A DNA stretch of 64,000 nt, taken from NCBI RefSeq assembly GCF_018350175.1, contig NC_058368.1, positions 25,422,001-25,486,000 of the forward strand. Reading direction: 5' to 3'. Below the pieces are notes generated by a model. It worked only from the letters and a program-made list of their open reading frames with translations. It made no database searches and was not told the origin of the DNA. This DNA comes from Felis catus (Eukaryota). How positions within the stretch are numbered: the first letter of the stretch is position 1; the number at the start of each line of letters is the position of its first letter. Made by a program: the position numbers and the translations under genes. This document shows positions 5,501 through 30,400 of the stretch, piece after piece.

Positions 5501-8293
5501 AATATGTAGCAGAGTCAAAGAGAAGTAACGCTATATTACAAACTGAACTGCTCGGATACAGTTCCCTTCATAAGGAAAATATAGCAAGTTAGACGTAGTT
5601 AGGATGTTGACAGCTCAGCTTAGTACGAACAAGTAACAAGCTTAGCAAGCACAGCATGCAAAAACAATTGCAGATGAACATAAAATAAACCTATAACCTT
5701 TGCTGACACATTTGGACAGGTCAAACACACCCAACTGTGCCAGCCAGGACAATAAAGTACCTCTAGTTTTCTTGAGGTCCAGGGAAATTTCCTTAATGGT
5801 GAATTCGGTATGAAATGGAGCAATCTGTTCACGAAGGATCAAAAGGTGCTTAATTAAGAAAAGTTGTCCATCAATCTGAGTCTAAATTGTAAAACAGAAA
5901 AATGGATATCATCACAGATTAAATAAAAAACATAAAACACATGTGTTATTAATCAACATTAATCTACCTAAGTTCATGGCCCTTAACCTAACCATATGTA
6001 CCCATGGCTCCCTCGGTGTGCAGTGAACTCTCCCATATTACCCATGTTAGAACTCCCTGGAAAAAATCTTGCTGCAAACCCTTACTAACACGGCCGTCCA
6101 CTCTGTCAATCCAAGGAAGTAAATCAGACCAAAGGTTGTAAAGTCAACACATTTAGAAAAGAAATCAAATCTACTTTAATTTGGTTCAGAAACAGAAGAG
6201 ATGGAGTGACCCAACCTCGGCACGGAGTAGGAAGTCAAGTTCAAAGCATGAGCATGATTCCGACCTCAGCTTTCTAGCTTCTCGTTAGGTAACAGGGCTC
6301 TCACTGTTTGGTCAAAGTGGTTTCAATATCCCGAATATCAGAAATAATCACATTTACACAAAAATACAAAAGGAGCTTCCAAAGGCAGAAATGAGTTGGG
6401 GTTACCATTGTGGATTATCTTCCCACTGACAGAGCCTTGCCTGCCTACACCCTGAGAGTGGCTGCACCGGGCACTATCGACACTAGCCAAAGTATGGAAA
6501 GAGCCCAAATGTCCATCGGTGGATGAATGGATAAAGATGATGTGGTATATATATATACAATGGGGGATTACTCGGCAATCAAGAAGAATGAAATCTTGCT
6601 ATTTGCAACTACATGGATGGAACTAGAGGATATTATGCTAAGCAAAATTCGTCAGAGAAAGACAAATATCATGACTTCACTCATATGAGGACTTTAAGGT
6701 ACAAAGCAGATGAACATAAGGGAAGGGAAGCAAAAATAATATAAAAACAGGGACGGGGACAAAACATAAGAAACTCTTAAATATGGAGAACAGAGGGTTA
6801 TTGGAGAGGTTTGGGGATGGGGGATGGGCTAAATGGGTAAGGGGCTTAGGGAATCTACTCCTGAAATCATTGTTGCATTATATGCTAACTTGAATGTAAA
6901 TTAAAAAATAAATAAATTAAAAAAAAAGAGAGAGACAGAGAGAGCGGCCACATGGGCATCTTCCCTGTTAGGCCCTGTCCGGAACGGTCTTGATTCAAGC
7001 TTTATTGCCAAAGCTCAGACCCAATCCTGAAACAGTGAAAAATGATAACTTTCATGTCAGGAAAAAGTCTGTATATTAACAAAAGCAAGGCTGCGTTTGC
7101 TCGTTCTTGCTGCCTACTCAAGATAGAATTTTACTTTGAAAATATTTCCAACGATGTTACACTATACTAAGAAAAGAATAAAGTCCTTCAGTAAATAATA
7201 AAAATTTTAAAGGGGTTACTAAACAAAGTAACTCCTCTCTGGTTTCTCTCTCTCTTCCCTCCTTCTAAATAAACCCATCATCAATATAGAAGTACGATTT
7301 ATTGATGGAAACTCACTTTGCACTCTGGCACACAGAGCATTAAATAAGCAGGAAACATTCTGAATACTTGCTCTATTTTTCAAAAAACTAACAACTCCAA
7401 GGGGCAAAAATAGTACAATATAGATTGACTTTACTACAGCTGTTATCCAGCGAATGGTACCATGTTAGTAATTTACTGATACACTAGGTGCTCAATTTAA
7501 AAGTACAGAAGAACAATTTCTTGCCTTAAAAAGCCAACACATTAAGTGATCATTTTCTTGAAAGGCAAAAGTATAAACTCCACAATGACAACAAATTAGC
7601 TAATGCTTACCAAATAGAGGGCTTCCTCATACATACTTAAACCCCTTATAATATGTAGGAAGCAAAGCTAGATAAAATAGGACAGCCTCACAGGCCTCAC
7701 AGGGTAAGGACTGAAGAATCAAAAAGCCCTTCATACTTCCCTTTAAAAAGAGAACAGTGGTATAAGACCTAAGTCGATACACTTATTTTTAAATTAGGTC
7801 ATTTTTTTTTCTCCTGATGATCTAAGAAACACACGCCCATGCTAGATAATCTGATAAATAAGAAAAGTATAGAGAAAAGAAGGGAAAATCATCCACAGTC
7901 CCCCAAAAGCTTTCAAAAGCGTTTTCACTGAAGTCCTAATGTAGATCTGGTTTGTATCCTTTTTTTTTTGCCTTAACATATTTAAGTTGAATGTTACTGC
8001 TTCATTAAAAATTTAATGGTCGTGTAATAGTCTACTATATGGAACATGCCACAATTTATTTAACCATTTACCTAATATTAGAATGTTTTTCCTGATTTCG
8101 TGTATTAAAGGAAATGTGAGAGCTCAGACTTAGAAACACTTTTTAAAACTTAAATCTGCCTGTCTACAACTAACTTTCCATCCTCTTTCTAGCAAACAAA
8201 AATTGTAACCTTCCATTCCACGAGTGGGAGAATGAAGTTGTCACAGAGGTACAACTTTCCTAGCAAAAGAACCCCAAATTCTTTGGTGGGAAG

Positions 8294-11678: not shown

Positions 11679-14600
11679 CCTCATATATATGCTTAACTCA
11701 AATAGCTATGCCCAAACTGTGATCAATAATCTTTATGGAATAAATGAACAGTATATACACATTATACAAAAAGGAGGTAGACCTGTGTGTAGTCCCGTGG
11801 AAGCAAGTGGGAGCCTACGGAGGTGGGGGAATGACAAGAAAACAAAGCAATGTTAAACAGGAAAATTAATCAAAGCTGGTTTGCCTGACAACCTGCCTTC
11901 CATGATCTAAGCTGTATCACTTACAGGCCTCCTCAGTCTATCCATTTCCCAAGTGAAGAGAATTATCCGCCCTCTTTCCAAGACAGGTCAGACGCCAGTA
12001 AGGGTGAGGAGACAGAGGGGGGCTTGGCTGGCTTTGTAAGGAAAGCACAATCACTTCAGCTCAAGAGACCAGAGTTGAAATGAGCCACAAAAGCAGAGCT
12101 AAGATAATACTTTGGAGCAAGAGGGAAGAGTGAAATATGGACTGGGTATGAGAGGACATTAGGAAACTTTATTGAATGTTTTAGTGCAATAATGGTTTAT
12201 GGTTATGTAAGAGATGTCCTTACTTTCTGGACAGATGACGAAATACTCAAGAGTAAACTGGCAATGATGTCAATAATTTACTTTAAAGTCATCAGCAAAA
12301 GATTGGGGCACCTGGCTGGCTCAGTCAGAGAAGCAGGTGGCTCTTGATCTTGGGGTCATGAGTTTGAGCCCAGCACTGGGTGTACAGATTACATAACTAA
12401 ACTTTAAAAAAAATAAATATAAAAAATAAAATGAGCAAAAGAATATATGTATATGTAATGTGATAAAATATTAAGTCTTGAATCCAGGTGGTGGGTACTG
12501 GTATGCACTGTTCATTGTATCATTCTTTCTACTTTTCTGTATATTTGAAATCTTTTCAATAATAAAAAAAAATAAAAGTATAGCCAAGCAAAATATAATT
12601 CCTTTTTTTAAAAAAGAGCCAGAACTGCCTAGGCTTAGGAGGAGATCCGGAGATTATGGTATATAGATTTATGGGCAAAAACAAAGAGGAGAATGTCATA
12701 GGTCAGTGCTTTCATTTTATAATTCTGTAAGCTTAAGTTTTTGTTTTTCAAAAGCATGTAATACTTGTGTGATTTTATTTATTTTTCTGGTATTTTTATT
12801 TATATCCAAGTTAGTTAGCATATAGTGCAACAATGATTTCAGGAGTAGATTCCTTAAGCTCCTTACCCCTTTAGCCCATCCCCCCTCCCAAAACCTCTCC
12901 AGTAACCCTCAGTTTGTTCTCCATATTTATGAGTCTGTTTTGTCCCCCTTCCTGTTTTTATATTATTTTTGCTTCCCTTCCCTTATGTTCATCTGCTTTA
13001 TATCTTAAACTCCTCACATGAGTGGAGTCATATGATATTTGTCTTTCTCTGACGAATTTTGCTTAGCATAATACCCTTTAGTTCTGTCCACGTAGTTGCA
13101 AATGGCAAGATTTCATTCTTTTTGATTGCCGAGTAATACTCCATTGTATAGATGTACCATATCTTCTTTATCCATTCATCCATCAACGGACATTTGGGCG
13201 CTTTCCGTACTTTGGCAATTGTTGGTAGTGCTGCTATAAACATTGGGGTGCATGTGCCCCTTCAAAACAGCATACCTGTATCCCTTGGATAAATACCTAC
13301 TAGTGTAATTGCTGGGGCACAGGGTAGTTCTATTTTAATTTTTTGATGAACTTCCATACTGTTTTCCAGAGTGGCTGTACCAGCTTGAATTCCCAACAGC
13401 AGTGCAAAAGAGATCCTTTTTCTCCACATCCTCGCCAACATCTGTTGTTGCCTGAGTTGTTAATTTTAGCCACTCTGACAGGTTGAGGTGGTATCTCATT
13501 GTGGTTCTGATTTGTATTTCCTGGATGATGAGTAATGTTGAGCATTTTTTCATGTGTTGACTGGCCATCTCGATGTCTTCTTTGGCGAAGTGTCTATTCA
13601 TGTCTTTTGCCCATTTCTTCACTGGTTTGTTTTTTTTGGGTTGTTGAGTTTGATAAATTCTCTATAGGTTTTGGATACTAACCCTTTATCTGACATGTCG
13701 TTTGCAAATATCTTCTCCCATTCCATCGGCTGCTTTTTAGTTTTGCTGATTGTTTCCTTTGCTGTGCAAAAGCTTTTTATTTTGATGAGGTTGCAATAGT
13801 TCATTTCTGAATACTTGGGTGACTTTAAAAGCCCCTCTAGGGGGCCTTACTTTAAAATATCTATATGAAGTTCCTTAAAAAGAACAAACTAGACAAATTT
13901 TATCAAAGAATATTTAGGAGATTAAGTATCTATAGTTGTGCTAAGATTAGGTGTGTAAGATCCCTCCTTCAAATTAAAGAGCCAAAACATTACCCCCAAA
14001 TAAAAGTTTAGTGAAACAAATCTATTTTAAGTACTTTAAAATACTGTACTTTAAGTACTGGCTTGTTTATTTTTTCACTTTCCTGTGAAAAATAGTTAGC
14101 ATTAAAACAACCGACGCAGGGAAAGTTTACTTACCTGGCAAACCATCAAAAGGCAAGTGTCTACTAGCTGCCCCTTCTGAGGAGCAGAACAAAGCCAAAT
14201 AACAGGGCTTCTCCCTCAGCCTCCGGCAGTCTTCCTCCAGCGTCGTCTCTGAGCCCACCCTCCTCTCACCCGCTCTACGCAGAGAATAGAGCCTGTGCTT
14301 TTGAAAACACTGATAATCAGCCTCTTCACACAACGGTCCCTCACACTGGCCCAGACACCTAGTTCTACTACGTGAACACCATGTTGTTCAAAGTCCTCAC
14401 TTTGGAGGCTTCTCATTCTCACTTCCAGCACACTAAGAAACCAAGAACCGAGAAAAGTGATTATATTCTTTTTTTGCTCCCCCTGCCACCTGACTCAGTC
14501 TTGCTTTTTTCATCCCAAATTCTATCACCAGTCTAAGTACCATCAACAATCATACAGACAACCACACGGTTGCCCCTGACCTTCCGAATTCCAAAGACTT

Positions 14601-17600
14601 TCATTTCGATCCCTGCACCCCCAACCCCATAGACAGATGTTCTCAAGACTTCCTTTCAGAAGTACTTTATTCCTTTCTATAGACTTTATTACTCCAAACG
14701 ATTCCACCTCTTAATTATTAAAACCTACCATCCCACTCTGACCACAGTATCATTGTGATGTCCTATTTCTCACCTGTTCACCCAAACTACACTGCCAACC
14801 CCTCCTCCTTTGGCTTTAATCACACCTTATCCTCTCGCTCTCTTCTGACCTCTCTGGCTATTCTTCCTCAGTTCGCCCAGAATACTCCATTTCGCTCCTT
14901 AATGTCAGCGTCTGTTAAGGTTCTCTCTCAGGTTTACTTTTCTCTCTCTCTCAGAGTTCTGTTATTATCACTCTATTCTCAGCGCCGGGGTGATCCTATA
15001 CAAGCCCACAGCATCAAGCACTCCACTGTCTTTATCTCCAGATCAGTCCTCCTCTTTACAGCTCTAGAGCAGTACTGTCCAACAGACATATTAAATGGGA
15101 CATATTAAAATGCCACATTAAAAAAGGTAAAAAAAAAAAAAAAAACACAAATGGTATGAGTTTTAATATAGTTAGCCCAATATATTTAAAATATCATCAC
15201 TTTGGGGCGCCTGGGTGGCGCAGTCGGTTAAGCGTCCGACTTCAGCCAGGTCACGATCTCGCAGTCCGGGAGTTCGAGCCCCGCGTCAGGCTCTGGGCTG
15301 ATGGCTCAGAGCCTGGAGCCTGTTTCCGATTCTGTGTCTCCCTCTCTCTCTGCCCCTCCCCCGTTCAAGCTCTGTCTCTCTCTGTCCCAAAAATAAATAA
15401 ACGTTGAAAAAAAAAAATTAAAAAAAAAAATCATCACTTTAACATGTAATCAAGACAGAAATTACCAATAAGGTGCTTTCCATTCTTTATTTCATATTAA
15501 GCCTTAGAAATTTGGTATGCATTTTATATGCTAACAGCATATTCAGATGAGCCACATTTCACATGCTCAATGGCAGGCGGCTACCATATTGAACAGCACA
15601 GCTCCAGACTGATATACACATGGACCCTACCAAGTCTTCCTCGGTCCCCACATCTAGGATGTCATCAAATTCTATTGACTCAAGCTTTTAACTGTATGTC
15701 TCATCTATAAACTTCTCTCCATCCCTCATTAGTACCCTGGTTCAAATCACCTTTAACTTTCAAATGGAAAACAAAACAGTCTCCTAACTAGTCTCTACAG
15801 TTCTGCCAACAATACCTTATTTACTTTAAGGCCAGGCATGGGTAAAAGAATACAGACTCTACTGGGGGAAAGGAAAATGTACAAGACCAGGACTGGCAAG
15901 ACAGAAATGTAATCTAGTCTTTCCAGTAACTCTTGAAAAGGTTTTCTAGGACCAAGAGGTATACTAAGACATGGCACAGGTTCTATTTCAGAGGAGAAAA
16001 TTTTAGTCTCTCTTCCTATGGGGCAAGCATGATAAAATGGCTTTGCCAGGGAGGGAATACCCAGTCTGCTTGGCAGTCTGGCCTTAAGGTATCAACTGTT
16101 CATAGAATAACCCACAATACCTGATGATGCCCTGAACCTGGGAACGTGGATGCAACTGGGATCCTTGAAAGGTTCCCACTCTCACTATCCCAATCCCAGG
16201 CTGTCCTGGGCTCCATGATGAGCTGAGCTTCACTGCCCCTGTTAGAGCTAGAAGGAGAGACAACAAACCAGCTCGCTGTCTACATTAAATGCATGAGAAT
16301 CCAGGATGATTCTTGGACAATTCTGCTCCCTGCAATAAATGCACCATAGTCCAAGCTATCCCATACATTTCAATCAGTATTTTATCCCAGTCCCAGGCAC
16401 TCAATATATTTACCAAATGCAAATCGGGTGGTACAATTATGCCAATACGCTCTACTACCAAGAAGTTCAAAGTCCGCGAAACTGACACCTATCTGGCCTG
16501 CTGTATCTGCTCCTTCCCTACAAATAACCTATACCCAAACATACCAAACCGCGTGACTCCCCCAAAAGCATCCACGGTCTTCCATTCCTGCATGCCTTCT
16601 TCCGTGCTATTCTGTCTTTAACCTTACTCCACCTGGCTTCATTCTTGCCTTTATAAACAGCAGAGCTTTCAGACACAACACCTCTCACTGAATTCACTTT
16701 CTTGCACTCAAAGCTTCGTAATTTTGATGCCCTTCATCCATGATCCAAGAGTGTCCTGTGTATACCTTTGGGCATATCACCACTGAATTACATCTGTGGC
16801 TTATCAATCAACCCCCCACCCCCACCCCCGCCTGCTCAAGTGTGAGCTCCTCAAAGGCACATAAGCTGTTTCTCATTTCTCATGTCTGGAACATGACAAG
16901 GCCTCAATAAAAGTTTAAATGAATAAATAAAAGTTGGAGTTAAACATCATAACATACCAGATTTTGTTAGATTATTAGACTCTGTTTCCTCTAACTGAAC
17001 ATCTGAAAACGAAGCTTCCGAAGGTACCTTCTTCTGTTCATCTTTTAAACTTTGTGCAATTTGCTGTGTAAAGAAATCAGAAACAAAATTAAAGTGTAGT
17101 TTTCAGCTGTATTTTGCAACATGAACACGTTCTTTCCAAAAAGCTAAAAAAAAAAAAAATCTAGTTAATAAATGAATGGACTAATGAAACTAAGGCAAAA
17201 CAACCCATGGAAATGAAAAAGTTGAATTAGTATAGAGCGTCCCTATTCCCGTAAACACGTACATAGCCTTTTGTGAATCACTAATCTCAGAACCATTACC
17301 AGGTATTTGCTGAAGGGTCAAATACACGAGCCTCCTATAGGAAGCTACTTTCAACTTGATGTTTAGAAACAAACTTTAAGATTGGACACATTCTGAATGT
17401 CAGAAATGCTTTATCAAGTAACTGGCCAATTCAAACAACTCACTTTCTCTCTATGAGAGAATGGGTACAGTAAGCTATTTTTCAGATTATTAAAAATTAG
17501 CTTATGCACTGAGACTATTCAACCCTTCTTCACTGCCTAAAGAATAACATCAAACACACACAGGTCACTAACTACTAAGTAATGAAAACTTCACTAGTTT

Positions 17601-20600
17601 ACATTCCCACCTTTTTAAAAGTGGAAATACACAGAAACGGAGACTAACAGACACTTAGCTACTGACAAAAGGAATGGCCAGAGAACTATCTAGGAGACAG
17701 ACTCTGGGCCAGTCCTCTTACTCTGCGTGCAGAAACTAGAAAGTGTAGCTAATCCCTAAATGGCACACAGATGTCACAGCAAGATCACCTTATACCCCTA
17801 TCCCCCACCAAAAGAAAAACAAAGCAAACATTTGCTGCAAGTGGTGTCCTTAAACCAAAGGGTCTACACAAGAGAGCATCAGGACACTGGCCATGTGATG
17901 ACTGAATAAACATACTAAATGTGTCACTAAATTACAATGAGGGGGGCTTTAGTAAACCTCATCACCTAATGGTCTATTAGATAGATTACGAGATTACATC
18001 TGTGTGCCATTTAAGGATTAGCTACACTTTCTGGTTTCTGCACCCAGAGTAAGAGGACTGGCCCAGAGACTGTCTCCCAAATAGTTCTCTGGCCATTCCT
18101 TTTGTCAGTAGCTAAGTGTCTGTTAGGTCTCCATTTCTGTGTATTTCCATCTTTATAAAAGTAGAAATGTAAACTAGTGAAGTTTTCGTAGTTAGTGATC
18201 TGTATATTACAGACATTGATATGTTTGTAATATAAAACTACTATAAAGAAGACAAGGAAAGGAGGGGAACAAGAGAAAGATACAATTCCCCAGATTGGGC
18301 TGAGCAACAGATCTAGTCTTTGTCATATACACTTTGTGGGCTTCAAAACCAAGGTAACTTCTGTACATGAACTATTGATTGGTTCCCTGGAATTATTAGC
18401 AGTATCCAAACACCAAAAGAATTCCTACCATGAGCCTGCAGAATAAGAAAAGGTGGGCAATAAACTAACAGCCCCAATACTACATGCCCTTCCTATATGT
18501 ATCTGATCCCTGCATGGTTGATTTTCATATTATTAAAAAAAAAAAGTATTGGGGCGCCTGGGTGGCTCAGTCGGTTGGGCGTCCGACTTCGGCTCAGGTC
18601 ATGATCTCGCACTCCGTGAGTTCGAGCCCCGCGTCAGGCTCTGTGCTGAGCGCTCAGAGCCTGGAGCCTGTTTCGGATTCTGTGTCTCCCTCTCTCTCTG
18701 ACCCTCCCCCGTTCATGCTCTGTCTCAAAAATAAATAAACATTAAAAAAAAATTAAAAAAAAAAAGTACTATGCAAACAATATAACTACCCAATATATAA
18801 ATTTAAGGAGAAATCAGGAGAAGGGATGAAAAGTTGAGGAGAATATTCTTAAAATAGGTTAGGGCATTAAACCAAGTAGCCTGGTATATTTCAAGCCTGT
18901 TAGCTTTAAAACAAACACACTTCTTACTACACACATATCAGCCTAGGCACTGAAGCGTTAGGTTAAGTGAATATGCTGGCGAGGGTGTGTGGCAACAGGA
19001 ATGGGTTAGTATACTTACGTATACTTCTTTGCTCTGTCAGCCGACAGGATCCAAGAGCAAGAACCCCCGATAGCTATGAGCACACCCAGCACCTAAACTT
19101 TGTTTGCTAATTCCTTTCTCCAATAAAAGAAGCCAGGACTCCTTGGAGAAATGGCTGACTCTAGGGCTACGACAGGAAATAGGCAAGATGCGCCTGGAGC
19201 CGAGAGATAAGGAAGTGTTCAAAAAACACACAAACAAACCTATAAGCTGGGGATCTGTCAAAGGGACCCAGGAACCAAGTGAAAGAGCTCCCAATGGTCA
19301 AAGTTGGAACTATTTGAGCAAAACAGCAGTGGACTATAATCCAAAGTACAAAATAAATACCCATGAGTCCATACTGGTATCAATAAGTGATTAAATAAAT
19401 ACATAAATGCATAAAAGGAAAAAGATTTCCCTTGCAGACAAATTCTAAATAATTTATGCAAATACTCTGCATCTCAAGGAAGCAGCATAGCTTGGGGAAA
19501 AAGAGCAACTTGCCAGTGAAGAAATCTGACGATGCTTCCTCAGCCAGGTGATCAAGTTCAGTTAACAACTTGATAAGTCATGTTGATAGCATCTAGCCTA
19601 GATATGATGTTCTAAAAAAGTTACTTTGGATTTTCCTCCCCAAAACACATACCACCAGTCTAATCATGAGAAAAACATCAAATTCCAACGGCAGGGGGTT
19701 AGGGGGAACCCTACAAAATACTTAACCAATTCTCCTCAAAAATGCTAAATTAAAATCATCAAAAACAAGGAAAGTCTGAGAAACTGTCATAGGCAAGAGA
19801 AGCCTAACATAACATGAAAAACAAATGCAATATAGTGTCATAAATAGGATAATGGGATCCTGGAATCGAAAAAGACATTACATAAAAACTAAGGGAATCC
19901 AAATAAACTATGGCCTTTAATTAATACCAATGTATCATTACCGGCTCATTAACTGTAGCAAATGTACCATACTAACATAAGATGTTAATTAACAGAGACA
20001 ATTGGATGTTGAGTACATGGGAACTCTCTGTACTACCTTCTCAATTCTTCTGTAAATCTAAAACTGTTCTAAAAAAATAAAATCTAGAGGGTATTATGCT
20101 AAGTGAAATTAGTCACTCAGAGAAAGACAAAAATCATATGACTTCACTCATATGAGGACTTTAAGAGACAAAACAGATGAACATAAGGGAAGGGGAACAA
20201 AAATAATATAAAAATGGGGAGGGGGACAAAACAGAAGAGACTCATAAATGTGGAGAACAAACTGAGGGTTACTGGAGGGGTTGTGGGAGGGGGGATGGGC
20301 TAAATGGGTAAGGGGCATTAAGGAATCTACTCCTGAAATCGTTGCTTCACTATATGCTAACTACTTTGGATGTAAACTTTAAAAAACAAAAAATAAAGTT
20401 AAAAAAATAAAATAAAATAAAATCTATTACAAAAGAAAAGAAACTCAGGATATGTGTTCTCCAGGAAAAGCAGTCTAAACAGAAACAGGATAATATCTGA
20501 GCCACATTTATAACTTAACAACAGAGATTACTACTCAGGACCAAAAAGTATGGGGATAAATATCAGATATACTTAGGAAGAAATGGACTTTAAACTATTT

Positions 20601-27382: not shown

Positions 27383-27430
<48 letters not shown>

Positions 27431-30400
27431 TAGCATGAGTGGGGGAGGGGCAGAGAGGGAGACACAGAATCGGAAACAGACTCCAGGCTCCAAGCTGTCA
27501 GCACAGAGCCCGACGCGGGGCTCGAACTCCCAGACCGCGAGATCGTGACCTGGCTGAAGTCGGACGCTTAACCGACTGAGCCACCCAGGCGCCCTGAGAA
27601 ATTAATTCTTTACAGCAGACTGCCAACTAACATATGTGGAAGAAATGGCCGATATGAAAATTGCCATCTTGCTACTCCCAACGTAATAACTGGTTCAGAC
27701 ACAGATCATTAATGGTTGCAATAACCAGAAAAGATGCTGGGGAACTCACATAATCTCTAAATATCATTTCATCATTACTAATTACAAAGGAGGTAATGCA
27801 CTTTTATAATGAAGTCAGCAATTACGACATTATCCAATGGTGGAACATGCTGACATTATGTGCCTTTGATGTGATAAAGTACACATCAACCTTGTAGTAT
27901 TCGTGCAAAAAAAAAAAAAAGAAAAGAAGTGTAATCTGAATCTAAATATGAGGAAAACAATCAGACAAATCCAGAATGTGGCACATTCCACAATAAAACT
28001 AGCTTGGTCTCTTCAAAAAAGTCAATGTCATAAAAACAAAAACAAAAACAAAAAAGCAGGTGGGGGGAGACAATAACCTTGACTAGACCCCACTCTCTAA
28101 ATTTTTTGATCTTGTTAGGAAAGACATTTGAAGGACAACTGGGGAAATCTGAAAATATACTACATACAGTATATGTAAAAATGGCATGTGATTATGTGAA
28201 GAATGTTTTCTTTTTTTAACATTTCTTTAATGTTTATTTATTTTGAGAGAGAGCATATACATGCATGCTCACCGAGTAGGGGAGGGGCAGAAAGAAAAGG
28301 AGAGAGAGAATCCCAAGCAGGCTGTCAGTGCAAATCGTGACCTGAGGCTTGATCTCACAAACTGTGAGATCATGACCTGAGCCGAAAGACAACTGAGCCA
28401 CCCAGGCACCCCAAAAATGTTTTTATTCTTAAGAGAGTAAGAATTGAAGAATTCAGAAATGAAGACTCGTGATACCTATAATTTACTTTCAAACAGTTCA
28501 GTAATGAAATATCCACACAAAAAGCTAAAGTAAATGGGACAAAAACAGTAAATCTGAAAAAATTCTAGGTTCAACTGACTATTCAATGACACTAAAGCAT
28601 TATAATACTGCTTTTTTTTTTTTAATTTTTTTTAACGTTTATTTATTTTTGAGACAGAGAGAGACAGAGCATGAACGGGGGAGGGGCAGAGAGAGAGGGA
28701 GACACAGAATCCAAAACAGGTTCCAGGCTCTGAGCTGTCAGCACAGAGCCCGACGTGGGGCTCGAACCCACGGACCGTGAGATCATGACCCGAGCCGAAG
28801 TCGGACGCTTAACCGACCGAGCCACCCAGGCACCCCATAATACTGCTTTTAAAAAGGTGTGATAATTGGGGGCGCCTGGGTGGCTCAGCCGGTTAAGCAT
28901 CCGACTTCAGCTGAGGTCATGATCTCACGGTTTGTGAGTTCCACCGCACACTGGGCTCTGTACTGATAGCTCAGAGCCTGGAACCTGATTCAGATTCTGT
29001 GTCTCCCTCTCTCTCTGCCCCTCCCTCTCTTGCTCTCTGTCTCTCTCTCAAAAAAATAAACATTAAAAAAATTTTTTTAATTACAAAATAAAAGGCGTGA
29101 TAATTTTATCACAGTTGTGTTACAATTAGAAGTGCCCTTACCAAAATAAACAAGTGGGACTATATCAAACTAAAAAGCTTCTGCGCAGCAAAAGGAACCA
29201 CAACAAAGTGAAAACATGACTTACAGAATGGCAAAAAATATTTGCAAACCATAAATCTGATAATGAGTTAATATCTAAAATATATAAAGAACTCCTACAA
29301 CTCAACAGCAAAAAAAAAACCCAAATAACCCAATTAAAAATGGGCAAAGGAACTGAATCAACGTTTTTCCAAAGAGGATATACAAATGGCCAACGGGTAA
29401 ATGAAAAGATGGTCAACATCAATAACCATCAGAGAAATGCAAATTAAAACCACAATGAGATAATATCTCACGCCTGTTAGAATGACCATCATCAAAAAGA
29501 TAAGAGATAGGGGCGCCTGGGTGGCGCAGTCGGTTAAGCGTCCGACTTCAGCCAGGTCACGATCTCACGGTCCGGGAGTTTGAGCCCCGCATCAGGCTCT
29601 GGGCTGATGGCTCAGAGCCTGGAGCCTGTTTCCGATTCTGTGTCTCCCTCTCTCTCTGCCCCTCCCCCGTTCATGCTCTGTCTCTCTCTGTACCAAAAAT
29701 AAATAAACGTCGAAAAAAAAAAATTAAAAAAAAAAAAAAAGATAAGAGATAACAAATGCTGGTGAGGATGTGGAGAAAAGGGAGCCCTTGTGCTCTGTTT
29801 GTAGGATTGTAAATTGATGCGGCCACTATGGAAAACAGTATGGAGGATCTTCATTAAAAATAGAAGTACTATACGATCCAGCAATTCCACTTCTGGGTAT
29901 TTATCCAAAGGAAATGAAAACACTAACCCAAAAGGATATCTGCACTCCCATGTTCACTACATCGTGACTCATAATAGCTAAGACATGGAAACAACCTAAG
30001 TGTCCACCAGTGGATAAATTGATAAAGCAGTTGTGATATAGATATACAGTGGAATATTATTCAGCCATTAAAAAAAAGGAAATCCTACCATTTACAACAT
30101 GGATAGACCCTGAAGACATTATGCTAAGTGAAATAAGTTAAAGACAAATGTTGTATCATCTCACTTTTATGTGAAATCTAAAAAATAAAAACAAAAAAGG
30201 TACAAACTCTCAACTACAAGATAACTAAGTACTAGGAATATGATGTATGACATGACTACATAACTACAGTTAACAGTACTACATGATAGACAGGAAAGTT
30301 GTTGAGAGGTAGATCCTGAGAGGTCTCATCACAAAGAGAAATTTCTGGGTTTTTTTTTTTTTTTTAATGTTTATTTATTTTGAGAGACAGAGCGTGACAC

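Follow-up and report, generated by a model that had tools for sequence, protein, structure and literature searches.

The question raised by this locus is whether a long, nearly perfect inverted repeat inside an intron of the Felis catus gene COG3 serves the transcript in which it lies or is a by-product of mutation that has drifted along with the gene. The window, meaning the whole stretch of F. catus DNA that was analysed, is 64 kb long, and all positions are counted from its first base. COG3 proteins were retrieved with one exon translation from the window. When these proteins were aligned back by tblastn, 19 COG3 exons were located on the minus strand, and felid records matched at about 100% over most exons. 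Using tblastn together with reading of the splice junctions, intron 13 was placed at 31706-17064 on the minus strand and exon 14 at 16958-17063, starting at 17063. The acceptor of exon 14 lies 497 nt downstream of the repeat in the direction of transcription, in agreement with the first-pass annotation, which had described a stem in COG3 intron 13 about 500 nt upstream of this acceptor.

When positions 17401-18400 were compared with the 64-kb window by BLAST, one strong inverted match was found, joining 17560-17774 to 18203-17996 (E 4e-79). On the minus strand, the left arm (17560-17774) is the 3' arm in the pre-mRNA and the right arm (17996-18203) the 5' arm, and between them lies a spacer of 221 nt (17775-17995) that would form the loop. 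Identity between the arms was 89.4% by BLAST. Local alignment of the full arms gave 14 substitutions, comprising 11 transitions and 3 transversions, together with one gap of 1 nt and one of 8 nt. The arm ends were sharp, without a diverged tail past them. The core of the match (17584-17774 / 17996-18187) contained 13 mismatches and a single 1-nt gap, and for this core and the spacer the first reading of the sequence proved exact. The outward extension that it had also described is present and is set off from the core by an 8-nt indel at 17576-17583, found in the left arm only. Six of the 14 substitutions fell within 17606-17621 (scan p 0.010), a quasi-palindrome whose partner is 18150-18165, and beside this cluster the arms share an identical tract of 46 nt.

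The copy number of the repeat was determined by searching the 2.43-Gb genome. The left arm matched only itself and the right arm, the spacer was found once, and a search with a 1.4-kb region returned no matches other than both arms. The 26-mer at the arm terminus was also unique in the genome at up to 3 mismatches. The same search recovered at least 40 relatives for MIR and SINE queries; as in any such search, absence of matches is not proof of rarity. The left arm also matched locus L034 weakly (E 0.024); this match fell on a SINE, did not recur and was dismissed as chance. Within 3 nt of the arm ends no target-site duplication of at least 3 nt was found, a threshold under which a decayed 2-nt TA could pass. 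An old SINE, which we take to be MIR, was then turned into a profile with the use of 62 of its genome copies. It found 10 relics in the window at E<0.001 and had no hit in the arms even at E<=10. When an alignment with the MIR consensus was forced, the outcome was marginal for the arms (p 0.03 and 0.08) and for the spacer (p 0.05), while true MIR relics in the same alignment reached p<0.004 in 3 of 3 cases. With the profile blank in the arms and the forced alignment no better there than in the spacer, a MIR origin was rejected, and the resemblance of the arms to a decayed MIR, suggested earlier, was not borne out. As the arms are single-copy, have no target-site duplication beside them and went unrecognised by the MIR profile, we regard the repeat as a local duplication and not as SINE, L1 or transposon ends, which upholds the view of a local duplication taken at first.

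The opposite view, in which the arms are the terminal inverted repeats of a DNA transposon or MITE or else two MIR copies, is already largely refuted and must be considered very improbable. One arm end carries CAG...CTG followed by TA, which in our judgement loosely resembles Tc1/pogo ends, and this feature and the marginal forced alignment to MIR are what such an origin could draw on; against them stand an arm, a terminus and a spacer with no other copies in a search that returned relatives of MIR and SINE queries in abundance, the missing target-site duplication, the silent profile and the equally good score of the spacer. An artefact of assembly, a general risk with inverted repeats, is scarcely credible here. 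The arms differ at 14 sites, contigs of sequencing run X15 extend across each of the four junctions at 99% identity or more, and 98% of the sampled words were present in 14 of 24 runs (10 of the 24 were flagged as possible sources).

The junctions of the arms were analysed for traces of the event that produced the repeat. The outermost base of the right arm is also the first of a 14-bp mini-hairpin at 18203-18234, with 13 of 14 pairs matched and a 4-nt loop, and a nested 6-bp foldback ties it to the end of that arm. Hairpins of this class, defined by 13 or more of 14 pairs and a loop of no more than 10 nt, numbered 7 in the 64-kb window, six of them AT simple repeats and the remaining one, at 18203, unique. 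In 191 kb of other loci the same class was represented by 4 hairpins, two of them non-simple. At about 3 non-simple hairpins per 255 kb, we estimate the chance of one touching any of the four junctions at about 1 in 1000, for a scan that was post hoc and devised after the feature had been noticed. With a preset micro-foldback score the right-arm junctions were not significant, 7% of background windows scoring equal or higher for the inner junction and 21% for the outer one. The left-arm junctions were plain by this score (71% and 87%). At the inner right-arm junction (17966-17997), several foldbacks of 4-5 bp and a 7-nt direct repeat were present, which are suggestive only.

The presence of a unique mini-hairpin at the right arm's last base suggests that templates were switched several times in series and that the right arm is the new, inverted copy; the mini-hairpin would then be a likely junction scar, and the left arm, with its plain junctions, is probably the original sequence. 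We propose that a strand being synthesised in replication, or in the repair of a break, left its template for the opposite strand at a point about 220 nt back, that about 208 nt were then copied in reverse, and that one or more further short switches, which would have left the mini-hairpin at 18203-18234, preceded rejoining. Drift would later have spread the allele in an ancestral felid or feliform, at some 10-35 million years ago if divergence of the arms was free. Events of this type are described in the literature: inverted templated insertions occur as germline variants at about 100 per person, a quarter to a third of them complex (PMC8421209), and inverted repeats can arise in one step by template switches, with structures that may be maintained without selection (PMC5453318). 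The COG3 repeat resembles the template-switch or MMBIR-type insertions of these reports (Loytynoja and Goldman 2017, PMC5453318; PMC8421209) in that an inverted copy of nearby DNA has created a new inverted repeat, in the putative extra short switch at the junction and in the mutation cluster within a quasi-palindrome. It differs from them in scale. Most of the events published there are far shorter and lie nearer to the template, the search in PMC8421209 having been made within 100 bp, whereas the COG3 tract of 208 nt and its distance of 221 nt are above most surveyed events.

Taken as a whole, the repeat is probably the product of a neutral, lineage-restricted, one-off local templated inversion. 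Its anatomy, single-copy status, junction hairpin, mismatch pattern and presence in other runs are observed; the template-switch origin, the identity of the new arm, the age and the neutrality are our interpretation of them. The corrected divergence between the arms was 0.071, or 0.049 with the cluster at 17606-17621 counted once, which is near the 3-8% divergence of the window's five youngest SINE copies. With a rate of 1-3e-9 per site per year, the duplication would be roughly 8-35 million years old if the arms have diverged freely, and conversion between the arms would make the true age older. A pattern scan of metagenome contigs for outgroup sequence had 0 hits. We also considered an older inverted repeat whose arms have stayed similar through gene conversion or recurrent template switching, a history that needs no RNA function. 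Homogenisation of arms by template switching is possible (PMC5453318), and the uneven substitutions, with six in 16 nt beside the long identical tract, are in keeping with it. Such a history nevertheless seems unlikely, given the sharp ends without a diverged tail and a junction hairpin that is still 13/14 perfect and fits the same age as the arms. In-place inversion of the quasi-palindrome at 17606-17621 lowers the differences there from 6 to 4, and the cluster is possibly the result of one template-switch or micro-inversion event; the clustered substitutions may then not be independent.

The mismatches between the arms had been interpreted as favouring G.U pairs in the transcript, since 8 of the 10 core transitions would be G.U wobbles on the minus strand, against 2 on the plus strand. 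This count is exact, but a meaningful bias does not follow from it. The outer extension adds one further transition, of the A.C type, and the full count is 8 of 11. Against a 50:50 expectation the two-sided probability was 0.11 for 8/10 and 0.23 for 8/11. Five of the 11 transitions and 4 of the 8 G.U changes belong to the cluster at 17606-17621, and outside the cluster the split was 4/6. In mammalian genes A>G and C>T changes are faster on the coding strand (PMC2839347), and as both of them turn a pair into G.U, a transcription-linked mutation bias points in the same direction as the G.U excess. Thirty consensus-polarised SINE copies in COG3 predicted a G.U share of 0.58-0.65 for the whole element and 0.54-0.67 for the body only, and under these shares the probability of at least 8 of 11 was 0.18-0.49. 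The SINE copies within the gene showed a weak asymmetry, with 15/636 for A>G against 5/494 for T>C (p=0.11; two other filters gave p=0.004 and 0.47). In 13 unpolarised inverted SINE/L1 pairs, 123 G.U and 126 A.C mismatches were counted, and in view of this ratio the null share may be 0.5. The G.U bias is not significant under either null.

Folding of the minus strand in a context of 1,150 nt predicted 201 arm-arm pairs, 8 of them G.U, with a mean pair probability of 0.99 and a longest uninterrupted helix of 56 bp. Compared with shuffled sequences the fold had z-scores of -26 on the minus strand and -31 on the plus strand. By these predictions a 200-bp stem very probably forms in the COG3 pre-mRNA, and the long double-stranded RNA hairpin put forward in the first-pass annotation is expected to be very stable. 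Nothing found here is a sign that the hairpin does anything, and it looks ordinary.

COG3 is recoded by editing, and a connection of the stem with this editing had been proposed. The recoded adenosine at I635 is the first base of an ATT codon, and the I635V change has been reported as edited in pig, whale, human, mouse, cow and chicken (PMC8659423). In the window this adenosine maps to 5824 in exon 17, outside the duplication, 11.7 kb and three exons downstream of the stem. In the predicted fold it is a bulge against 5659-5671 in the next intron, the two together occupying 5659-5833 on the minus strand. The site is thus both remote from the stem and provided with a predicted partner of its own, and the proposed tie was not supported. 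The COG3 stem is like the editing inducer elements of Gabra3 and GluA2 (PMC5654063, PMC4053975) in being a long intronic stem in a recoded transcript. In the rows compared from the table of PMC5654063, however, inducer elements are conserved and sit 32-220 nt away from the edited sites, and COG3 is absent from the main text of that paper; the effect of Alu elements on editing is described within about 1-2 kb (PMC4053975). Closeness to a selectively edited site, by which an inducer element is judged, was not found for the COG3 stem. Inverted SINEs of the Alu type, whose intronic dsRNA undergoes non-selective editing (PMC526178, PMC7006430), offer another comparison. Inverted Alus that lie close together and resemble each other are edited most (PMC526178), and selection against intronic duplexes is only weak (PMC7006430). 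The COG3 repeat is likewise intronic, and its length, identity and spacing make intramolecular pairing favourable, but its arms are unique sequence and not SINEs. From the behaviour of Alu pairs and the weak selection on intronic duplexes, the stem is probably edited at some level, incidentally, and would then be lost with the intron without having a selected role.

Four of the 24 runs were inspected over 17100-18520, where assembled contigs of the RNA-library runs X15, X17 and X18 covered all or part of the arms at 99% identity or more; the fourth, a single-cell run examined as raw data, yielded 0 reads. No T>C changes were found over the arms in the contigs of these 3 of 3 covering runs, in material where contigs drop rare variants and libraries may hold DNA. 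Two differences were present in the flanks, 17395 G>A and 17510 T>G, which are not of the editing type, and there were no joints. In X18 the contig depth was 25-28 on both flanks and no contig extended over 17549-18117. The spacer was missing as well, and the hole, which could come from structure or editing, proves nothing.

A regulatory stem under selection, recruiting ADAR or modulating the splicing of exon 14 with its G.U pairs kept by selection, would be well served by the predicted arm-arm pairing and its 56-bp helix, by the 122 adenosines in the transcribed-strand arms, by G.U changes in the expected direction and by a donor-like motif near 17718 that is buried in the predicted stem; heavy editing or structure could also cause a gap such as that in X18. 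We consider this role improbable, given the 11.7 kb to I635 and its own predicted partner, the far shorter distances listed for inducers (PMC5654063), the reports of I635V editing from pig to chicken (PMC8659423), contigs free of T>C in all covering runs, and an exon 14 whose start was absent from 2 of 76 proteins spanning exons 13-15, neither of them felid. Very doubtful, too, is the specific proposal of a felid-specific, non-repeat stem of 200 bp, formed in one step by a template switch and since kept paired by selection through G.U wobbles, which would tune exon 14 splicing or a loading of ADAR that reaches I635 and an abutting felid alternative acceptor from 12 kb. There is also little to recommend the stem as a source of small RNAs made by Drosha and Dicer, whether hairpin endo-siRNAs or a young miRNA. 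Its long, near-perfect predicted pairing in a transcribed intron would suit such processing, and de novo miRNAs have been proposed to arise via template switching (10.1101/2023.04.19.537475). Against this, no Rfam family reached its gathering score in the window (E 0.49 for the best local match), and arms of unique sequence leave no trans target by full complementarity.

How unusual a neutral inversion of this kind would be was judged from other inverted pairs. In the window 24 pairs of at least 100 nt were found within 2.5 kb of each other, 9 of them in intron 13 (the stem and eight others). The COG3 stem had the highest identity of the 24. Two SINE pairs in the same intron had a stronger duplex energy, at -410 and -359 kcal/mol vs -353 kcal/mol for the stem. 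In 191 kb of other loci 19 of 19 inverted pairs were repeat-derived, with matches elsewhere in the window, which indicates that inverted pairs of unique sequence are uncommon, on a base rate drawn from the window and from loci picked around MIR copies. The COG3 repeat shares with the species-specific intronic long inverted repeats described by Lirex (PMC5414712) arms of >30 bp, identity of >85%, a long intron and unique sequence. It departs from the 'recombinogenic' rule of that report, its arm-to-spacer ratio of about 1 being below its mismatch percentage. No paper on the COG3 inverted repeat was found by title or abstract start, with subscription journals outside the scope.

The repeat is real, and it most likely belongs among the neutral, lineage-restricted inverted duplications of introns, which are a known kind. 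Were the long-range regulator reading true, the stem would be a new RNA regulator that can be dated and deleted; the neutral case is far more likely. If neutral, the repeat offers a clean example of a long RNA hairpin, not derived from a transposon, that was born in one step, and it is a reminder that an excess of G.U on the transcribed strand is the direction that neutral mutation already favours.

When contigs from the RNA-library runs were compared with the region around the inverted duplication in COG3 intron 13, a G>A difference was found at 17395 in runs X17 and X18 and a T>G difference at 17510 in run X15, both of which are probably polymorphisms. In run X18 contigs were absent over 17549-18117, although depth was 25-28 on either flank; such a hole by itself proves nothing.

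Two inverted pairs of young SINEs also lie in intron 13 (28612-28836 with 29510-29737, and 27420-27594 with 29511-29689; each approximately 89% identity), and the duplex predicted for either pair was stronger than that of the 17560-18203 inverted duplication. Elsewhere in the gene, exons 15-16 lie between inverted L1-like fragments at 6471-6926 and 12773-13231 (86% identity over 466 nt, 5.8 kb apart), an arrangement that can favour circular RNA. Two additional predicted exons within intron 14 (16248-16120 and 14387-14133) were present in one Prionailurus COG3 protein record, P0040, and are probably a gene-model artefact.

The adenosine recoded at I635 in COG3 exon 17 has an AG immediately 5' (window 5826-5824, minus strand). 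Among the 81 predicted COG3 proteins covering exon 17, nine lacked the 19 residues upstream of I635 and resumed at I635; all nine are among the 11 felid-named records, and none of the remaining 70 shows this gap. The distribution suggests an alternative acceptor in felids, with the edited A as the first base of the exon. A predicted exon 17-intron 17 duplex (5659-5833), in which the I635 adenosine is bulged, also spans this candidate acceptor. One literature search on the subject found nothing. Since the edited A would be the first exon base, editing of I635 would yield the preferred AG/G junction, and it is possible that editing is coupled to splicing at the candidate felid acceptor.
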